Shown here piece by piece: positions 49,575 to 60,650 of a DNA stretch of 64,000 bases (position 1 is its first letter; every line of letters begins with the position of its first letter). A program made the position numbers and the translations under genes. The DNA lies in contig JAHQWG010000035.1 in the NCBI GenBank assembly GCA_029856045.1, positions 32,001 through 96,000 of the forward strand, read 5' to 3'. Below the pieces are notes generated by a model. It saw nothing but the letters and a program-made list of their open reading frames with translations, had not been told where the DNA came from and searched no databases. Source of the stretch: Promethearchaeia archaeon (GTDB lineage Archaea; Asgardarchaeota; Lokiarchaeia; Sigyniarchaeales; SOKP01).

Positions 49575-52106
49575 TCATGCTAATGTATTAAACCCCTCAA
49601 ATTCTTTTATTTTGCTTTTATTTTTTCTTGATTTTGTTGATATTATTATTGATTTACAGATTGTTAAGTTTAATCCTGTTTTATGTCGCAATATATGAGG
49701 ATTTTCAGAAAGAACTTTTGATGCAATATGATATCCAGCATTATACAAAATCCGACCCCTGACTCTTCCCACATTCCTCAACCTTAAAACTAAATCAAAT
49801 AATTCTTCACGAATTCCGTGTGTAATTCGGATTATTAATGTTTCACATAAATTTGCAATTTTATCATCATCTAAATAAGAAGCAATTATTCCAATAAATT
49901 TGATAATTCTGATAACGTTTTCTTTAATTGAAAATAAATCCCCGGCATAAATTTTGAATTCATCCAATATATTTTGTAAAGGTTCTTCATCTGCCCACCA
50001 AATGAGTGGTTTCATCATCTTCATATTTCTGATTCTTGATTCAGATTTTAATACAATAAAAGCACACTTAATTAAACTTTTATAATCATTAACTTCACCG
50101 TTTTCTAACATTTTTCTAATTTTTACACCGCTTGACGGATACAGATATAATTTAACTATTAATTTGCCAAAATTGGAGCAAATTAATCCATTCCTTTCCT
50201 TTAATAAAAGCCCTTTCTCAATTAAATAATCTAAGATATATTCTCCCTTCACACTTTTAGGGATTATATCATTTACGTATTTTATTATTCTTACATCGGT
50301 CTGAGAAACCAAAAATAAAAGAAAACTACTTATGTGATTACAAAAAATGAAGTTACAAGAATTTTGTCCTAGTAAATCTTCTCCAACTCTATTATTAAAA
50401 TTACAACTACATGTAATTCCGCTATCCATATCAAATCTTACATGAAAGACTCCAAAATCTGTTTTAACTATCCCTTCAATTGAATCCTTTTTTATATTTG
50501 TAATTTTTGTTTGAAAGTTAGACCTTTTAATTTTTTCTAAAACTTCTGGATTTGAATGCAATTTCAATATATTCTCTGTTGTTATTTCTTTAATTCGTAA
50601 GAATTGATCTATGGGAATTATTTTATCCTTTATGCAATTCCAATAATATGTTTTTTCAAAAAAATTTTTCAATTTATTAAATGAAATGGATTCTTGCTCA
50701 AAAACCCTTAATAATACTTGTTCTCTTAAAGTTTCAGTTGAATTTATAGCAGATTGAATAGAATTATATATAGGAACCAATCGTTTTCCATCCTCTCCTA
50801 TTTGAAAATATTGATCCTCCACCCATATTTTTTCTTCAATGTTTTTAACAAGTATTATTCCAAAACCTTTAAGATCTAAACCTGGTCTACCAGCTCTGCC
50901 CAGCATTTGGAAAATTTGATTTCTTGAAAAAGGTTCAAAATAAGTAAATCCATTGCCAAAATCTTCATAAAATTTAGAAAAATCGGTAATGTTATCAACA
51001 CTTGTTTGATATCTTTTAAAATCCTTAATAATTACCATTCGAGCTGGCGTGTTTATTCCTGCGGAGAGAGTTGTTGTGGAACAAATAACTTTTAAAATTC
51101 TCTTATTAAAATATTCTTCAATTATTTGTCGTTCTTTTGAGAGAAGTCCTGCATGATGGAAAACCACACCTCCTTTTATGCAGCTCTTTAATTCAGTAAT
51201 TCCACCCTTAATGTTTTCTAATTGCTGTGATAATTTTTTACAGATTGATAGTTCTTGAGGATCCAACTTTTTCTTTATAAAATTTTTAAGGTATAGAGCA
51301 AGCTTCTGCGCTTCCTTCCTTTTATTCACAAATATTATAATTTGGCCTTTTTTCTTTAAAATTTCATTTACATAATGTTTGATGGTTGAATCTTTATTTT
51401 GAGACACTTTGATATCATATTTTAATGGTACTGGCCTTTCATTAGAAATTATTAAGATAAATTCTTGCCCAAGTGACGATAACCAGTTGCAAAAAAATTC
51501 AGGATTTGCTACTGTGGCAGATAAAGCAATAATTTGAGGATTAATCAAAAATTCATTCAATCTAACAATTAATGATTCTAACCGCGGACCTCTGTCTCTC
51601 TCTCCAACACAATGTATTTCATCTATAATAATTGTCGTAATTTCATTAATCCATTTTTCTTCTTTATAATTTCTTAATATTGAGTCCATCTTCTCATATG
51701 TAGTTATAATTATATTAGCTTTTTGAAGTTCCTTATCGTCAATGACAATATCCCCGATTGATAATTCTATTTTTATTCCGTATTTACTGTAATTTTTCGA
51801 GAAATATTGATACTTCTCGGAAGCCAAAGCTTTAAATGGTACTAAGTAAATTGCCTTTCCATCGTTTTTGAAAATATTATTAACAATACACAGTTCACCA
51901 ATCAATGTTTTTCCGCTACCGGAGGGTGCAACAATTAAAAAAGATTTATTAAAATAGAGTCCCTTAATAATTGCTTCTTTTTGGATATCTCGTAAATTAT
52001 AAATGTTATTTTTTAATAAGATTCTAATTATTCTCTCATCGTCTACATATTGATTAAATTCTGAGATTATTTCCTCCGGTGATTTTTCAAAATTAGTCGT
52101 TGTCAT
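49575..52106 (-). CDS. Ski2/Hel308-like SF2 helicase with an inserted SWIM-type zinc finger
   Basis: APSGSGKT, DEIH, SAT, FHHAGL, TLSAGINTPA and QMLGRAGRPG motifs; CSC...CNH insert; HhH (VGRVRGRILYNAG). Confidence 0.9.
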   Translation of the reverse strand: MTTTNFEKSPEEIISEFNQYVDDERIIRILLKNNIYNLRDIQKEAIIKGLYFNKSFLIVAPSGSGKTLIGELCIVNNIFKNDGKAIYLVPFKALASEKYQYFSKNYSKYGIKIELSIGDIVIDDKELQKANIIITTYEKMDSILRNYKEEKWINEITTIIIDEIHCVGERDRGPRLESLIVRLNEFLINPQIIALSATVANPEFFCNWLSSLGQEFILIISNERPVPLKYDIKVSQNKDSTIKHYVNEILKKKGQIIIFVNKRKEAQKLALYLKNFIKKKLDPQELSICKKLSQQLENIKGGITELKSCIKGGVVFHHAGLLSKERQIIEEYFNKRILKVICSTTTLSAGINTPARMVIIKDFKRYQTSVDNITDFSKFYEDFGNGFTYFEPFSRNQIFQMLGRAGRPGLDLKGFGIILVKNIEEKIWVEDQYFQIGEDGKRLVPIYNSIQSAINSTETLREQVLLRVFEQESISFNKLKNFFEKTYYWNCIKDKIIPIDQFLRIKEITTENILKLHSNPEVLEKIKRSNFQTKITNIKKDSIEGIVKTDFGVFHVRFDMDSGITCSCNFNNRVGEDLLGQNSCNFIFCNHISSFLLFLVSQTDVRIIKYVNDIIPKSVKGEYILDYLIEKGLLLKERNGLICSNFGKLIVKLYLYPSSGVKIRKMLENGEVNDYKSLIKCAFIVLKSESRIRNMKMMKPLIWWADEEPLQNILDEFKIYAGDLFSIKENVIRIIKFIGIIASYLDDDKIANLCETLIIRITHGIREELFDLVLRLRNVGRVRGRILYNAGYHIASKVLSENPHILRHKTGLNLTICKSIIISTKSRKNKSKIKEFEGFNTLA

Positions 52107-52291: not shown

Positions 52292-52717
52292 ATGGATAAA
52301 AGATTATTTGATCCAAACGACATAAAAATTTCACGCTCTGGAATATGGAAAATAGAAAGAGACCATGGAATTTTATATTTTGGGGTTAATTTAGACAATA
52401 AATCAGATTTTAATATTTATAATCTCAAATTTTTCTTACACAAAATTCCCATAAATATGAAATTAGAGCCAAAACAAATTCATAGAATTCCAAATTTGAA
52501 TCCAAAAACGAATATCTCAGTTTATTTCAGGTTAATTCCCGAAAAAGATTATATTTTTGATACTGTAGAAGGATTTATTTCATATTATGATTTACGAGAA
52601 AAAATATATATTAGAGATATAGAGCCGTATAAGATCGAATTTCAAAGAGAATTATATACACCGAATAAAATTTTCATAAGGAATTTGAATCAAAAAGTTA
52701 AGTCTTCTTCTATTTAA
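52292..52717 (+). CDS. Small beta-sandwich (Ig/adaptin-ear-like) protein
   Basis: Alternating beta pattern GVNLDNKSDFNIYNLKF...LNPK...VYFRLIP. Confidence 0.55.
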   Translation: MDKRLFDPNDIKISRSGIWKIERDHGILYFGVNLDNKSDFNIYNLKFFLHKIPINMKLEPKQIHRIPNLNPKTNISVYFRLIPEKDYIFDTVEGFISYYDLREKIYIRDIEPYKIEFQRELYTPNKIFIRNLNQKVKSSSI

Positions 52718-52784: not shown

Positions 52785-55175
52785 TTGGATATTATGGATA
52801 ATTACTTATATCAAAGTGATACGACATTAGATACCCCAGATAGAACAGATTATAAATATCATTATAATGAAGCAGAGAAATTGGAGAAAGAAGGAACTCT
52901 AGAAAGCCTTGAGTCCGCTATTGTTCATATTGAGATGGCAATCAATAATTTAAACATGAAAAAAGAAATATTGCCAGAGAAATCATTAGATTCAGAGTTA
53001 AAAAAATTCGCTGAACATCAATTAACGATTAAAACAAATTATCATGAGAAACGAATTAATAAATTGTTAGAAGAGGTAAAAAATGAGGAGAATTCAAAAA
53101 ACTATAAAAAATCGGTAAATATTTATAAGAAAATAAGAGATTCAATGAATTTTTTATATAAATTAGGAGATAAAGGCATAAACATTAATGAAATAAATAA
53201 AGTAAAAGAGAAAATTAGTAAATTAACTAAAAAGATATTAAATGAGAATTTATCAATCTCTTTGAACAGAAAATCAAGTAAAACTGAGCAAAAGCCATAT
53301 TCAGATGAATTTAAAGAAATTAATGCAGAATTTGAGGAAATAAATTTTGATACAAATGATCAAATTCCTTTACAGAATCATGATACTGAAGGAGAAATAA
53401 AAATACCGATTGAGGTTGAATCCAAGGTAATGGATCAAGATGAATTAGCTCAATCAGAAATGATATTATTAGAGGATAATGAAGTGGAGGAGGATAACAT
53501 AGATTTACTTGATAGACCTAACAAAATTAATATCTTAGATCAAATTAAAGTGATTTCAAATATCCCTGAAACTAAAGAATATTGCATGGAAAACGAAATT
53601 TTGGATAAAAAATCAGTCAAATTGTTATTAGCTCAGTTAAGAAAAGCATTAATTGCTAATAATTACCAAATTTTTCCTAATGATGACATTGATTTTCAAG
53701 AATTATATAATAAGATTGATTTTCTTGCAATAAAGATCTTCCATATTAATGAATTTTTAGATATATGCCATATTTTACCACTAAAACTTGCTAAACTATA
53801 CGGTTTATTACTTGTCTCAGAAAAAAAGATCGATTATAATAGCAATAATACAAATTTATCTCAGATTGAGCGTAAAAATCTAATACAGCCACTAAAAGAA
53901 GACATAAATGATGTCGTTCGTACTTTATCAAATGAACTTGGAAATGAAGGCCCGATCGCTAAAAATTTCATTTCGTATATTAATGATGATATATCCTTAG
54001 AAAAAAGCAGAATAGCAAGTAAAGGCTATTTTTATTGTAGAGGCCGAATGCAATACAATTTTATAGTTCAGCCCATTATCATTTCCCAAAATAAAATTGG
54101 ATTTTTAGAGAGGAATATACCATATGCATTCCAACAATCTTCTGATTTATATGTTGTTAATATTAACGATTTAAATGATTTATTAAGCTACTTGGAACAG
54201 AAAAAAAGTTCAATTGAAAAAATTTGTATCAAAAAGCAGCCACTTAATTTATTTATAGATAATAAAATAAAATTAAGCAATGCTTTAAGGTTAATAAGCA
54301 TCTTATTAGGAGTATTTGGGGTTTCTTACTTAATTTCATTGTTTTTAAATGATAAAATTTTTGTCAGTGTGTTTCAAGTATTACAAATTCCTTTTATAAT
54401 AGGGATAATACTTCTATTAGGTTTCTTTATATACATATATAAAAAAAACCAAGATGAGATCATTCAAAAATATAATAGACCATTCGGCTTCGACCATCCG
54501 GACTTTTCTGGACAAAATTTATCTATTGCTTTGAATCAAATTAATCCTCCTGAAAGAGAGCAATTCCTATATGAGATATATAACAAGCGTCCAATTCCTA
54601 TTGAGTTATTGCAAAAGATCCAAAATCCTCACATTTTTTCAGAATTTGTTGAATTATTTGAATCAAACATAGTAAATATCACATTAAATAATGAGAATTT
54701 AACTAGATTAAAACAGTCTTTTAAATATTTTAAACAAAAACATAATTTCTACAAAGCATATTGTATTCTTCGGGCAATTCTTGTGTTGAAATTACGAGAT
54801 TTTATAAGACATCGCTTGAATAAATCAGCCGATGATATCCATAATATCTCTTCCCTGCTAGATATAATATGCGCTGAATGTAATATCCTATTTAACAATA
54901 AGTCGGTAGAAGCGATAAAGAAAATAGAGGGAATTAGAGAACTGAAGGGACTTATAAATCAGAATTTTTTTACTCAAATTGTAAATATAGTATATGATAT
55001 TATCGAAATAATTCAGAAGAATACCAAATTGACTGAAGATCTTAAAGAATTTAATAATTTTCATGAAGAAAATGTTCAGAAATTTGAAGAGAATGCTGTA
55101 TTTGAAAAAAGCATTGGCTATACGGGAGGAGACCCTCCAGAAAATATATTTAAAGATTTCTTAAAGGATGATTAA
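52785..55175 (+). CDS. Multidomain membrane protein (helical TPR/MIT-like N-terminus, acidic linker, alpha/beta domain, 2 TM, helical C-terminus)
   Basis: 796-aa ORF with two TM helices near aa 500-550; overlaps the next gene by 8 bp. Confidence 0.75.
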   Translation: MDIMDNYLYQSDTTLDTPDRTDYKYHYNEAEKLEKEGTLESLESAIVHIEMAINNLNMKKEILPEKSLDSELKKFAEHQLTIKTNYHEKRINKLLEEVKNEENSKNYKKSVNIYKKIRDSMNFLYKLGDKGININEINKVKEKISKLTKKILNENLSISLNRKSSKTEQKPYSDEFKEINAEFEEINFDTNDQIPLQNHDTEGEIKIPIEVESKVMDQDELAQSEMILLEDNEVEEDNIDLLDRPNKINILDQIKVISNIPETKEYCMENEILDKKSVKLLLAQLRKALIANNYQIFPNDDIDFQELYNKIDFLAIKIFHINEFLDICHILPLKLAKLYGLLLVSEKKIDYNSNNTNLSQIERKNLIQPLKEDINDVVRTLSNELGNEGPIAKNFISYINDDISLEKSRIASKGYFYCRGRMQYNFIVQPIIISQNKIGFLERNIPYAFQQSSDLYVVNINDLNDLLSYLEQKKSSIEKICIKKQPLNLFIDNKIKLSNALRLISILLGVFGVSYLISLFLNDKIFVSVFQVLQIPFIIGIILLLGFFIYIYKKNQDEIIQKYNRPFGFDHPDFSGQNLSIALNQINPPEREQFLYEIYNKRPIPIELLQKIQNPHIFSEFVELFESNIVNITLNNENLTRLKQSFKYFKQKHNFYKAYCILRAILVLKLRDFIRHRLNKSADDIHNISSLLDIICAECNILFNNKSVEAIKKIEGIRELKGLINQNFFTQIVNIVYDIIEIIQKNTKLTEDLKEFNNFHEENVQKFEENAVFEKSIGYTGGDPPENIFKDFLKDD

Positions 55176-55917
55176 AATGATTGAGAATAGTGAGAAGATT
55201 GTAAGATGTTTTAAAATTTTCTATATCATAGGGATCGGACTGGTTATTGCATCCTTTTTCTCTGAGTGGTATTATTACGCTTATATCATCAATAGAATTA
55301 CAATGATTTGGGGATATAACATAATTGCAGGATGGAACTGTATTACTAATAATTCTATAAATTATCCTATATCAATCGAGATTGATCTTATGTTATTTTT
55401 ACTATATGTATTTATTTTTTTTTTAGCATTAATATCATTTATTTATATTTCACTTGAGCGTCCACTTTTTAGCAAGAAAAATTTTTATAATAAGGTAAAA
55501 ACTTTAAATTACATTTTTCCTGTATATCTTGGATTTAACCTTATAATATTGGCATTATTTTTATTTAATTTATTCCAGGCTAATTTCTATTTTCCATTTT
55601 TGAAGCTTTATATTGTTTCCGAAGATTCTGAAACTCTTTACTGGCTTGGTCCGGGATGTATTTTGCATATGATATCTTTTATTTTTATGTTTCCCTTTTC
55701 TGCTATAGTTTTACAGATCCCTCGAAAATTTAAATTAAAGGAGAATAAAATTGAAATTAATAAATTAATTGAAGTAAGTTCTAAAAATATAGATTTTGAG
55801 AAAATTATAATGAAAGAGAGGATAAAGAAAGATAAGACATTCAATCAATCTTCTAACGGAAAACTACAAAAAGGAAAATTTAATCTGGATAATATACGCT
55901 TGGAGAGTGAATCATAA
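55168..55917 (+). CDS. 4-TM membrane protein
   Basis: Four hydrophobic helices; FFSEWY and YWLGPG turns. Confidence 0.75.
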   Translation: MIKMIENSEKIVRCFKIFYIIGIGLVIASFFSEWYYYAYIINRITMIWGYNIIAGWNCITNNSINYPISIEIDLMLFLLYVFIFFLALISFIYISLERPLFSKKNFYNKVKTLNYIFPVYLGFNLIILALFLFNLFQANFYFPFLKLYIVSEDSETLYWLGPGCILHMISFIFMFPFSAIVLQIPRKFKLKENKIEINKLIEVSSKNIDFEKIIMKERIKKDKTFNQSSNGKLQKGKFNLDNIRLESES

Positions 55918-56796
55918 GTGTCAAAATTATTAGAAGCCACTAAATTGTTATTGAATAATCAAAATTACAATGACCTGTATGAATTATATTTGGATTTGAT
56001 TTATAACGCGGTCAATGAAATTGGTGTAAAATTAAATATTACAACACTTAAATCCAACGAAAAAATTTATGATTATATGATAATAATCGATAAATTCCTC
56101 TTTAATAATATCAATATTGTATTATTTGGAGAACATATTCAGAAAGTAGTTAATTTTCACACTATATATGATAAAATTAAAAATACTTCAGAAAACCTAA
56201 AACTAGATCAGTATGATATAAAAGAATTAATTGAAGAATACTATGAACTTAAAGCCCTAGCTGTCCCTAATGTTTTTCAAGATATTGAAAGTTATAAGAC
56301 AAGTAAATATGCCAATTTTCAAACACTCAAAGCGTGTAATTTAGTTTTTGGAAAAAAAAATAAGAATTATGATAATACCAACATTGAAGATGCATTGTAT
56401 GAGATGATCTCCAATCGTATTCAAAATGATTCTGATAAAATCAGGAGAGATTATGTGAAAGGAAAACTAGCTTTTGATAAAAGTTTCAGAAAATTAGCAA
56501 CCTTAGATTCAATCCAAAAAACAATAGAGTCGTCAAAGAAAAAATTCAGCCAAATAGAGATCAGTGGAACCTTATCTGACAATTTAGAATATAAAATCTA
56601 TACATTACGGATGCCGGGATATCTTATATTATCTTTTGGAATTATTTCAGCGATATTATTAGGTTTTATATTTATGGAGATATTTTCAGTGCCAATACTG
56701 GCTGTATCATTATATCCTAGTGCTATATTTTCTGGATTAATTTGTTTTATTTGTTTTTATATCTTTATTAAATTCTTTATTAGAGGAAAAAAATGA
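55918..56796 (+). CDS. Helical protein with two C-terminal TM helices
   Basis: Abuts the previous stop codon (TAAGTG) and has an ATGA overlap with the next gene. Confidence 0.75.
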   Translation: MSKLLEATKLLLNNQNYNDLYELYLDLIYNAVNEIGVKLNITTLKSNEKIYDYMIIIDKFLFNNINIVLFGEHIQKVVNFHTIYDKIKNTSENLKLDQYDIKELIEEYYELKALAVPNVFQDIESYKTSKYANFQTLKACNLVFGKKNKNYDNTNIEDALYEMISNRIQNDSDKIRRDYVKGKLAFDKSFRKLATLDSIQKTIESSKKKFSQIEISGTLSDNLEYKIYTLRMPGYLILSFGIISAILLGFIFMEIFSVPILAVSLYPSAIFSGLICFICFYIFIKFFIRGKK

Positions 56797-59700
56797 GTAA
56801 AACACCAACAGAAATCACAACAAGTTTGAGTCCTTCAGAGAAAGAGGATTTAAATAGATTTGGAGCCGTTGCTGACATTAACATTTGGAATGAACGACCT
56901 GCATTCAAAGACGTGAATAAATTTTGTATTTATTTAAAAAGTGGTTTTATCATTGGTATATTTTTAATATTTACTTTATTGTTATATTATTGTAGTGGGG
57001 CGTTGATACCTTCGTTCTTATTCCCGAGTTTGATAATTTTCTTTTTTGTGTTAATATTTTTCCAAGATATTTTTTATTATTTTCCTAAATTCAGATATTC
57101 TGGAATTAAAAGAATCGAATTATTTAAGAATTGTTCATTTAGGATTAAAGATAAGAATTCTGATACTTTATTTATTTTCAATAGAAAAGAGAATTTAGTT
57201 ACTGGTATAAAGTTATTTAAAATAGACATATTACCTGAAACGATTGAAGGTAACGTTTATCGATTCTTAAGTTCTCTCGATCGAACTGGAATTCCTTATG
57301 TTTATCAAATAATTCAGACTTCAAATATTCAGTTAATAAAGAGATCTTCAGATTTTTCTGATAAAAAAGAAAAAATGAGAGTTAGGAACACTCTACAAAA
57401 TTCACAGACATCTTTTAATATTAGTTTATTCTTGGCAACTTCTTATTGTAATATGAATAAAATAATTTCTGTTGCATTGGATGAAATACAAAATTCTTTA
57501 AATCGTTATGGTAAAGGTATCATTTCCTCCTTTATTGCCTGTTTTCCTCATCATCATTTAACAGAACTAAAAGGTTTGGAATTAATAAATGGGTTATATA
57601 CTTTATTTTTTAAGACAGAAGTAGAACCAAGAAAAGATAATGAAAAATCATTTAAAAATAGAAATTGGAGATCCACAATAATCAGAATTGTTTATCTATT
57701 TATTTTTATTAGTTTTGAGGCATTCTTATTATTTTCTGTAGGCATTAGTGTTGATTTTAATATATTGGTTAATCTAATTGTTTTGATTGGAATTCTTTTC
57801 ATCTATTGGAGAGAAATATTTAGCTCTTTGACAGATAAATTCATCTTTAGGGATTTTCTTAGATTAAATCTTTTTAACGATTATAAATTTTTTATGAGAG
57901 CTGGTATTCCGGATTCTGTTTTTGTTTGGAATGAAGAATTGAAATTATTGATTGGAATTAAGTTATTTGCAGTTAGAAATATTATGACCCGTGGTTATTG
58001 TAATCCCGATAAGTTTATTAGAGCAATCTCGCCTTTTAAATTGTCATATTCTTATACAACGATCCAGGCTGCTCTTTCTCAATTTGATTTGGAAAAAGAT
58101 TATATGAAATACCTGAAAAGTAAAATCATTTACAGCATGCAGAAATATTATAATAATGAGGAGAAACTTTTAAAATGGCTTTCTATGAGAGCCGGTATTT
58201 GGCGATTTATGTTTCTTATTTCTATAAATTCCTACAAATTTACATCCTATATTTCAACTGAAATTATTGATAATTTAGAGTTGGAATTACAGGAGAGATT
58301 TGAAACCATTCACCTTGCGTTTCAGGAGACATATAGTGATTATGTGCCATTAGTATTAAGAAATCGACGATTAATTTTAGGAATTAAGGTAATTCTTTTA
58401 AAAAACAAGTTTATCCGTCGTGGAGGCACATATATACCCTATTCTCTTATTCAAGGTAAAATTTTAAAAGAAGTTAACAAAATAATGAATGAATTAAAGA
58501 AGGGAATTAAAACTCAAGTGGCTGTGGAGTTTAATACACCCTTAAGCTTAAAAAATGAAATTTTAATTGGTAATACAATAAATACTGAATTTTTTAGGGA
58601 GGAAATACCTTTTGGTTTATTATTTAATCAGATTAATAATTTAATCATTAGTGGTGGAACACACAGGCAAAGAGAAGATATTTGTATGAAAATAATAACG
58701 GAATTGGTTAAAAACAAAATCCCTTCAATAATATTTGATTTTAATGGAAAATATAGTAGGCTTATTGAAATTTTCTCTAAGACACAATTTTATCGTGATT
58801 TCTATTATTTTAAACTGGGTCAAAGTTTTAATATCGAGTTATTGAATTCGGGAATAAAAAATGATCCCAAGAATTTAGAATATTTGGATTATATCTGTGA
58901 AGCGATTGGATGTATAAAAAAATTAAATGACAAAGAAATACAAACGATTAGGGATTTGATATCAAAAGTCCCAATGGATTCTAAATCTATAACTATGGAT
59001 ATGGAAATGGAAGATAAGTGGAAAAAAAATAAAAATTATAATGAAAAATATATTGCTTCAGTATTTAATGATTATACTCAACAAACTAGAAATACAATCA
59101 GTGCAATAGGCATTGTGGAGGAAAATATTAATTCAAATGATTTTCTAAAAGATGATAAAACTGTAATTATTGATTTAAGCATTTTAAGCCCCCCGCTTAA
59201 TATATTTGCAATGTTTGTGTTGATTTCGAGAATAATTCATTATACCCAAGAAGGTAAAGATTATATTCCTAAGTTGTTAGTAATGCCTAACGTCGAATAT
59301 TTTTTCGATAAATTTTATCTTGATAAATTTATTAAGCCTTATACAATTGATAGATTCCTTAATCCATTGAAAGAAAAAGGATTTGGATTTATGTTTTTAG
59401 TCAATGAAGTAAATAAATTACATCCAACATTTTTTGATTATATTCAAAATTTTATGGCTCTAAAAACGGTGCAACCGGCAGATTTAATGGTTTTAAAAAA
59501 TCTTCTTAACTTGCAAGAAATTCAAGGTCAAGGATATTATACAAAATCACGAAAAAATACATATCATATAGATTTTTTGAAACAATTAAGGAATAATAAT
59601 GCCATAGTCTTAAGAGATGATATTGACCAACCCTTTCCCGTTAAAATCGATATTGATTCTCTTGCAGCGATACCTATTCCAAAATATTTGGAATTAAGCG

Positions 59701-60650
59701 AATATATGAAAGAATTTGGGTATAATTTTCAAAAAACCGAAGAGCAAATCTTGAATTCAATTGAAAAAACAATATTTGAAAAAGATTTTCAACAATATCT
59801 CTTTCTTTTAGACGATATTATTAATTTTCTTAGAGCCTTAAATCGAATAGACACAATTGGTAATATTTATGAGTTTAAAATCAAAGAACAACTTTTTAAG
59901 TTTATACATAAAAAATTAGTAGCTAAAGACTACAAGAGAAAACAAATTAGTAAAATTAGAGATGATTTGTTCAATGTATTAATTTCCCATCAATATTTGG
60001 TTGAAAATCACCCAAGAGAAGCTGGAGGCTCTCAATCGATGAGAACATCATATTCTGTAGGACATCAATTTGTGAAAGCATTGGATGATCATTATGATTC
60101 AAAAAAAAAAATCAATGATCAGGTTGATTTACAGCTTATCGAGAAGAGAAAGATTAATGTAAATGAAATTATCCCTAAAAAGGAAGAGATTTTCGAATAT
60201 TTCGTTCCACCAGATAGTGATCAGAATAAGCAACAAGTGATAATAAAAACCAAAAAAAAGATTAGTAATTCAAAAAATATATTGGCAAGTCTTATAGGAG
60301 CACTTTTAGTCAATGGAACTATAAGGGCTGGTAAAGAATTAAGAAGAAATCAATACAAAGATACAATCTTAAAAGTGAGAGATGTTTTATCTAAATTTTT
60401 ATATAAATTATATGATTTTAAATTTGATGAAAAAAGCAATGCAAAAATCCACAGTGATGTACTATTAGAAGCGGTAGATTTTATTGCTGAATCTAATATC
60501 ATTCCTTTCAATAGGCAAGAATTATATGATATTCTCAAAATGATTAATATTATTAAAATTAAAAGTGGAGAGTTAGAAAATACTGCAAAAAATCATTATG
60601 AAATGCTTTATGATTTTACACAAAAAATTTTGATAGGGGTCATGGATTAG
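56793..60650 (+). CDS. Membrane-anchored VirB4/HerA/FtsK-like pseudo-ATPase
   Basis: NLIISGGTHRQRE...IPSIIFDFNGKY, VIIDLS, LLVMPNVE and KEKGFGFMFLVN follow the HerA/VirB4 motif order but with the catalytic residues lost. Confidence 0.75.
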   Translation: MSKTPTEITTSLSPSEKEDLNRFGAVADINIWNERPAFKDVNKFCIYLKSGFIIGIFLIFTLLLYYCSGALIPSFLFPSLIIFFFVLIFFQDIFYYFPKFRYSGIKRIELFKNCSFRIKDKNSDTLFIFNRKENLVTGIKLFKIDILPETIEGNVYRFLSSLDRTGIPYVYQIIQTSNIQLIKRSSDFSDKKEKMRVRNTLQNSQTSFNISLFLATSYCNMNKIISVALDEIQNSLNRYGKGIISSFIACFPHHHLTELKGLELINGLYTLFFKTEVEPRKDNEKSFKNRNWRSTIIRIVYLFIFISFEAFLLFSVGISVDFNILVNLIVLIGILFIYWREIFSSLTDKFIFRDFLRLNLFNDYKFFMRAGIPDSVFVWNEELKLLIGIKLFAVRNIMTRGYCNPDKFIRAISPFKLSYSYTTIQAALSQFDLEKDYMKYLKSKIIYSMQKYYNNEEKLLKWLSMRAGIWRFMFLISINSYKFTSYISTEIIDNLELELQERFETIHLAFQETYSDYVPLVLRNRRLILGIKVILLKNKFIRRGGTYIPYSLIQGKILKEVNKIMNELKKGIKTQVAVEFNTPLSLKNEILIGNTINTEFFREEIPFGLLFNQINNLIISGGTHRQREDICMKIITELVKNKIPSIIFDFNGKYSRLIEIFSKTQFYRDFYYFKLGQSFNIELLNSGIKNDPKNLEYLDYICEAIGCIKKLNDKEIQTIRDLISKVPMDSKSITMDMEMEDKWKKNKNYNEKYIASVFNDYTQQTRNTISAIGIVEENINSNDFLKDDKTVIIDLSILSPPLNIFAMFVLISRIIHYTQEGKDYIPKLLVMPNVEYFFDKFYLDKFIKPYTIDRFLNPLKEKGFGFMFLVNEVNKLHPTFFDYIQNFMALKTVQPADLMVLKNLLNLQEIQGQGYYTKSRKNTYHIDFLKQLRNNNAIVLRDDIDQPFPVKIDIDSLAAIPIPKYLELSEYMKEFGYNFQKTEEQILNSIEKTIFEKDFQQYLFLLDDIINFLRALNRIDTIGNIYEFKIKEQLFKFIHKKLVAKDYKRKQISKIRDDLFNVLISHQYLVENHPREAGGSQSMRTSYSVGHQFVKALDDHYDSKKKINDQVDLQLIEKRKINVNEIIPKKEEIFEYFVPPDSDQNKQQVIIKTKKKISNSKNILASLIGALLVNGTIRAGKELRRNQYKDTILKVRDVLSKFLYKLYDFKFDEKSNAKIHSDVLLEAVDFIAESNIIPFNRQELYDILKMINIIKIKSGELENTAKNHYEMLYDFTQKILIGVMD

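Follow-up and report, generated by a model that had tools for sequence, protein, structure and literature searches.

The window analysed here, a stretch of DNA of 64,000 nucleotides, comes from an organism that we judged from named homologs to be a Promethearchaeota (Loki-type) Asgard archaeon. It contains the gene of a VirB4-like membrane pseudo-ATPase, present in a single copy in its own genome. The features considered below are listed with window coordinates, except for the last one, which lies on another contig.

49575..52106, minus strand: Hel308-type helicase with a SWIM-like zinc finger and intact motifs, a conserved neighbour
52785..55175, plus strand: operon gene 1, 796-aa 2-TM protein; helix-hairpin-helix (HhH) DNA-binding domain in the family, undetected in this copy
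55168..55917, plus strand: operon gene 2, 249-aa 4-TM protein of no known family
55918..56796, plus strand: operon gene 3, 292-aa protein with a TM hairpin at its C-terminus; overlaps the pseudo-ATPase gene in an ATGA
56793..60650, plus strand: VirB4-like membrane pseudo-ATPase, whole gene, 1285 aa, one open frame without stops
56919..57647, plus strand: module 1, TM hairpin (residues 43-91) and first VirB4 N-domain lobe (structure model, fold searches)
57666..58472, plus strand: module 2, second TM hairpin (residues 292-337) and second lobe (HH comparison)
58515..59672, plus strand: HerA/VirB4/TrwB ATPase fold with dead catalytic site, residues 575-960 (model, fold search, dN/dS)
58650..58676, plus strand: degenerate Walker A position, residues 620-628; the Lys column commonly has Arg and the Ser/Thr column Glu
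58719..58754, plus strand: IPSIIFDFNGKY motif, residues 643-654
59163..59180, plus strand: VIIDLS motif, residues 791-796
59274..59297, plus strand: degenerate Walker B position, residues 828-835; 54 of 55 homologs have Pro where the Asp would be
59370..59405, plus strand: arginine-finger/Gln-sensor stretch, residues 860-871, not conserved as R / Q
59535..59567, plus strand: family-specific inserted loop with invariant Arg920 (alignment, column conservation)
59745..60107, plus strand: probable winged-helix domain behind the ATPase fold (model, weak HTH matches)
G000:C27:180245-183001: CedD-like 3-TM ATPase, unlinked to the pseudo-ATPase

Because the query protein had no significant sequence match in Pfam, NCBIfam or PDB, its domain assignment needed testing. 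An AF2 model of the ATPase half (residues 545-1110, pLDDT 78.8) matched HerA (Foldseek E 5e-11) and VirB4. Structural comparison over ~320-350 residues gave Z scores of 24.0 with the C-domain of DndH, 23.9 with VirB4 (rmsd 3.8, 324 aligned), 23.7 with HerA and 22.0 with TrwB, and the RecA-like P-loop core with a helical insertion seen in the model places the protein by fold in the FtsK/HerA superfamily. In agreement with this, weak DUF87 matches were detected in 10 of 55 homologs. The HerA/VirB4-like domain that the earlier note had guessed from the motif pattern was thus confirmed, and the alternative that the fold is not a P-loop failed. A prediction of a homodimer of residues 569-969 scored 0.00, which is not evidence either way on the oligomer.

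The model of the N-terminal half (residues 1-560, pLDDT 82.7) had TrwK/VirB4 of R388 as its sole significant match (E 4e-10; Z 24.7, rmsd 4.7, 328 aligned), the next family reaching a Z of only 9.5, and its matches in the Atlas were VirB4/TraG clusters with a TM of about 0.5. The pseudo-ATPase therefore has the two-lobed N-terminal domain fused to an ATPase that is a hallmark of VirB4. Module 2 is a tandem duplicate of module 1 (HH probability 99.1%, E 1e-18, 230 columns), and the hairpin of module 1 occupies the place of a VirB3/PrgI-like unit. The second-best folds for residues 1-560 were chains of the mycobacterial ESX-3 and ESX-5 membrane complexes (Z 9.5 and 8.4); they may point to a module that a type VII subunit shares with the lobes of the VirB4 N-domain. 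Behind the ATPase fold, the winged helix is supported by a homolog (P0189) that matches wHTH regulators, and there is in addition an extra helical tail. In terms of fold, the models predict a full VirB4-like chain whose membrane anchors are built in and which includes an ATPase fold; the winged helix is likely.

The earlier note had also claimed that the catalytic motifs are degenerate within one intact reading frame. This claim held, since all five motifs were found at their places and the frame has no stops. Alignment to intact paralogs showed H, Q, R and E in the query at the G4, G6, K and T positions of Walker A, P and N at the D and E of Walker B, K at the arginine finger and N at the Gln sensor. 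No in-register GK[ST] was present in any of 55 close homologs (35-100% identity); two of them contained out-of-register GKS strings, both still with Arg in the Lys column. One refinement was needed, namely that the Lys column of the degenerate Walker A is not random, being occupied by Arg in 47 of the 55 close homologs and in 45 of 57 members of a wider set. The Ser/Thr column is Glu or Asp in 49/55 close homologs. Among the wide members the first Gly of Walker A was retained in 43 of 57, while the G4 and G6 glycines were lost throughout, G6 often being replaced by Glu or Asp. The arginine finger was R in all 19 intact proteins, compared with 5 of 57 Walker-less ones. Since deep-branching members often keep the acidic residues of Walker B, it is possible, as an inference, that Walker A and the arginine finger were lost first. 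In the model of the ATPase half, a helix extends into the Walker A loop. The best conserved parts of the domain were the linker 575-600 and the inserted loop 909-929 with its invariant Arg, above the Walker regions (column conservation 0.73 for the inserted loop, 0.56-0.61 for the Walker regions); this loop is short or absent in most intact relatives.

The dead ATPase domain evolved with a dN/dS of 0.15-0.21 in four genome pairs, and the VirB4 N-domain with 0.13-0.35. Walker motifs were missing from all orthologs, both those with 35-90% identity and the distant ones with ~20%. These results show that the dead domain is under purifying selection and that the loss of its motifs is not recent decay, the alternative that the earlier note had left open. 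A profile search of 1.8 billion representatives returned 210 matches; of the distant matches, those examined that were at least 400 aa long all lacked a canonical Walker A, and every one of the best 150 that carries a name is Asgard. The cluster names were Helarchaeota, Baldrarchaeia, Freyarchaeota, Thorarchaeota, Borrarchaeum, Asgardarchaeum, Heimdallarchaeota and Promethearchaeum syntrophicum, and the cultured P. syntrophicum carries a homolog (DSAG12_02162). When 301 genomes of the phylum were searched, 51 of the 68 genomes of the organism's own family had the full domain, and genes related to it turned up in many of the other families. Members from 15 Asgard families were examined and all were without Walker A, the groups with a Walker-less form being Loki, Hel, Thor, Baldr, Freyr, Sif and Heimdall. 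A plasmid origin was rejected, with one weak match only among 72,556 plasmids.

In a maximum-likelihood tree, 57 Walker-less domains fell on one side of a branch and 19 intact ones on the other (SH-aLRT 96). This was a quick tree with long branches, built without bacterial VirB4 or Ced outgroups from members gathered by the family's own profile. The tree is compatible with a single loss of catalysis early in Asgard history, which we regard as likely within the limits of a tree without outgroups. Some genomes have deleted or fragmentary copies: in G004 the syntenic copy (L225:13628-13828, contig C5) is internally deleted beside intact partner genes, a second, 52%-identical copy surviving on another contig, and the single-contig genome G032 has only a fragment. 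The deleted copy and the fragment indicate that the system is dispensable in some lineages. The forms of the families f9 and f22 have no predicted TM helix. In f9 (L187, L188) a 1050-aa TM-less dead form lies between a small nuclease-like gene and Hel308, and an upstream 220-aa 4-TM gene resembles a membrane protease without the HExxH motif.

The order 2-TM, 4-TM, 2-TM and pseudo-ATPase gene, usually followed by a small gene of 120 aa, is kept within the family, and the four-gene operon was found in ~15 loci. Its membrane proteins are mainly TM hairpins with little predicted outside domain, and Atlas searches with operon genes 1 and 2 returned no named family. The family consensus of gene 1 has a middle domain that by eye resembles a PD-(D/E)xK nuclease, with Pro replacing the second acidic residue. 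A HEPN-like domain common to the three operon proteins was considered and rejected for want of a significant profile match (best E 0.01, probability 4%). A 141-aa gene located before the operon (window 52292-52717) was seen in the same genus only, among the loci read. Profile comparison did not detect homology between the Loki partner proteins and the membrane neighbours in Thor or f9.

The helicase Hel308 lies divergently beside the operon in 13 of 24 family loci, directly downstream of the dead gene in 9/9 Thor and 2/2 f9 loci, and nearby in loci of f13, f16, f19, f23, f30 and Hel. The SWIM-like zinc finger was present in all 25 Asgard copies of this neighbour that were examined. The possibility that Hel308 is a dedicated paralog was excluded, as the genome has no other close homolog of Hel308. 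In other lineages separate genes encode the N-modules, and the neighbours include a RadA paralog, RadB-like ATPases, XPD, FEN1, an HExxH membrane protease and a small protein with a PD-(D/E)xK pattern (by eye). In the organism's own genome, a RadA paralog, a FEN1 paralog, a Hef-like helicase, a protease and a small 2-TM gene were found 4-25 kb downstream, beyond the window. At G000:C35:112643-114201 (L223:11644-13202), ~20 kb beyond the pseudo-ATPase, an 85-aa 2-TM gene is directly upstream of a RadA paralog; its family was matched in 17/24 related genomes, often with an HExxH membrane protease.

The earlier note had proposed that an active ATPase is encoded elsewhere, and the search for one in the genome was positive. 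The top paralog match (E 2.5e-18) was a 919-aa 3-TM ATPase with intact Walker A; further relatives with intact Walker A were a 570-aa protein and a 1032-aa 5-TM protein. The gene of the CedD-like 3-TM ATPase adjoins a thermosome gene and an Obg-like GTPase gene, and its Walker B reads IIEDA in most of its family. The active paralog family, to which the 919-aa protein belongs, was matched in 168 of the 301 genomes, among them the majority of those from Loki, Thor, Baldr, Freyr and Sif; at E 1e-25 it had no match in f9 (0/28), f14 and f22, which have the dead protein. Among NCBIfam models, CedD matched both the dead and the live Asgard forms best, reaching 50-97 bits in the active paralogs against a cut-off of 600, and the match to CedB was only 25 bits against a cut-off of 700. 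By fold the pseudo-ATPase is thus a member of VirB4, by its motifs it is not an active ATPase, and by family thresholds it is not a Ced member. At the metagenomic locus L053 a member of the active clade lies two genes behind the dead gene in one operon. The 1032-aa type is patchy in distribution and adjoins a second dead copy in G014. At G000:C27:76923-83729 a small 2-TM gene is followed by a 1032-aa membrane ATPase with intact motifs and by a 1129-aa acidic protein, an arrangement that is patchy in relatives and could represent a mobile transfer module.

Active ATPases in Thor, Baldr and the organism's own genome are adjoined by a family of 75-90 aa 2-TM proteins that is also present in the wider cluster of the dead gene and has the size and 2-TM pattern of the CedA1/TedC pilins. 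Two Baldr-type members gave a weak TrbC/VirB2 Pfam match (E about 0.05) without PDB or NCBIfam support, and the possible pilin likeness is only a lead. Searches of the genome for other parts of a transfer machine gave no match for the CedA channel with the single query NF041796 and none for VirB6 (PF04610). ComEC (PF03772), the channel of natural competence of the bacterial type, had no match in a 100%-complete genome; DprA is present. The parts of Ced and Ted have themselves diverged too far to be picked up by sequence search (PMC9905601).

The reading that we favour, with a probability of roughly 0.5, is that the pseudo-ATPase is the non-catalytic scaffold of a domesticated Ced/T4SS-like DNA-exchange machine. 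The fold, the loss of motifs, selection, spread in Asgard and gene linkage are shown; the scaffold role, the oligomer and the partner are inferred. In this view, a membrane subunit of VirB4/CedB type would have lost catalysis once, early in Asgard history, and would then have been kept as a scaffold. Judging from gene coupling, it would most probably make up, together with the three operon membrane proteins, the platform on the cytoplasmic side of a chromosomally encoded machine that resembles Ced/Ted and stems from type IV secretion. Energy would come from the unlinked CedD-like ATPase and/or from Hel308 pulling single-stranded DNA, and the DNA would pass by the winged helix, the conserved basic loop and the HhH partner to the RadA/RadB paralogs, FEN1 and nucleases for recombination repair; both the energy source and this hand-over are inferred from neighbours and analogy. 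Several observations on known systems are relevant here: VirB4 mutated in its active site is still able to stabilise VirB3 and VirB8 (PMC2653234), in R388 the outer copies of VirB4 seem to be structural (PMC12857230), CedB and CedD each have one half of the VirB4 N-domain (PMC11868833), and DNA import needs both of them (PMC11868833, PMC11823120). Against this reading, the gene of the active paralog is not linked to the dead gene and has housekeeping genes on both sides, CedA and VirB6 found no match, the pilin likeness of the small protein is weak, f9, f14 and f22 have the dead protein without a match for the active family at E 1e-25, the f9 and f22 forms have no predicted TM helix, and there are no experiments or expression data. 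Of the claims of the earlier note, the selected pseudo-enzyme is supported, with purifying selection upheld by dN/dS; the ring scaffold and the binding to an active paralog remain unproven inferences, as does a total inability of the protein to bind nucleotide.

A possible alternative is that the protein descends from a transfer machine and now serves as a purely intracellular, membrane-tethered platform for repair and recombination that docks Hel308, RadA paralogs and nucleases without passing DNA across a membrane. The most stable neighbours are repair genes, f9 and f22 have TM-less forms, the CedA and VirB6 searches revealed no channel, and the hairpin-rich operon proteins expose little, all of which would fit. 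What speaks against such a platform is that the VirB4 N-domain, which contacts membrane subunits in T4SS, is under selection, and that a small 2-TM protein, a membrane protease and an active membrane ATPase recur as a module. Another explanation, that the site has been rebuilt into an allosteric switch which binds nucleotide or DNA phosphate without hydrolysis, appears unlikely. The prevalence of Arg in the Lys column, the retained first Gly and the acidic Walker B residues of many deep-branching members are in its favour. However, the G4 and G6 glycines and the Ser/Thr are lost, G6 often being acidic, Walker B is Pro-x in the organism's own family, the helix of the model runs into the loop, and the Arg in the Lys column may be structural.

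We likewise consider it improbable that the protein is the scaffold of a T4SS- or T7SS-like machine for protein secretion or cell contact that is not related to DNA. T4SS move proteins too, the N-terminal half has ESX-3/ESX-5 chains as second-best folds, and a membrane protease recurs nearby; the HhH domain in the partner family, the winged helix and the persistent linkage to recombination genes argue against it. That the protein is a recently decayed ATPase heading for loss can be practically excluded: the deleted or fragmentary copies in G004 and G032 would agree with decay, but the frame is intact in 51 of 68 family genomes, dN/dS is ~0.2 and the same loss is seen in 15 families. A bolder version of the scaffold reading, towards which we remain slightly sceptical, is that of an ancestral chromosomal Asgard machine for cell-to-cell DNA exchange, derived from type IV secretion, with an obligate pair of dead and active VirB4-like ATPases wired to Hel308 and RadA paralogs, a counterpart of Ced/Ted. 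If true, it would be relevant to DNA exchange and recombination in the ancestors of eukaryotes and could be tested in Promethearchaeum syntrophicum.

We found no description of this protein in the literature searched. In our analysis the forms from Loki, Hel, Thor, Baldr, Freyr, Sif and Heimdall come together in a single dead lineage, and an active ATPase family that matches it and a pilin-sized protein co-occur with it; these points are new, as is the presence of the dead protein in a cultured strain. To our knowledge, from the literature searched, there is no account of DNA exchange in Asgard archaea, a process that touches on what preceded sex and recombination in eukaryotes. A VirB4 pseudo-enzyme that is found across the phylum, is under selection and has genes for Hel308 and RadA paralogs linked to it is a concrete candidate, available in a cultured strain. 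On the favoured scaffold reading, it would offer a natural test of the idea that VirB4 has a structural role independent of ATP, and a deep-rooted example of pairing between dead and active subunits in the lineage to which eukaryotes are closest.

Compared with known systems, the protein resembles VirB4/TrwK of R388 (PDB 7o42, 4ag6) in combining a two-lobed N-domain and a HerA/FtsK-type ATPase fold with a helical insertion in one chain. It differs in having no catalytic motif at all, two integral TM hairpins, an extra winged helix and a helical tail, and in being encoded on the chromosome beside Hel308, in an operon without VirB6/8/9/10/11 or a relaxase. With the crenarchaeal CedB/CedD and TedB/TedD (PMC11868833, PMC11823120, PMC9905601) it shares an archaeal, chromosomal location, modules of TM helices plus half a VirB4 N-domain, two ATPase paralogs and a link to DNA repair. 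In contrast to Ced/Ted, the Asgard proteins score far under the cut-offs, one of the paralogs has lost catalysis, the two N-domain halves either belong to the dead chain itself or are encoded as separate genes, the genome has no CedA match and the partner proteins differ. In Rickettsia, too, a full-length VirB4 paralog whose NTP-binding residues are substituted (VirB4b; PMC2653234) is conserved alongside an intact one, and has been proposed to be structural; it is, however, a bacterial duplicate with seven substitutions in a canonical T4SS, whereas the Asgard loss is complete, phylum-deep and accompanied by unrelated partners. Finally, the HerA proteins (archaeal HerA-NurA; defence HerA, DndH and TdpA) have the same ATPase fold (Z 20-24), and HerA genes whose Walker A is intact exist separately in the organism's own genome; unlike HerA, the Asgard protein carries, instead of the HAS barrel, a VirB4 N-domain and TM helices.
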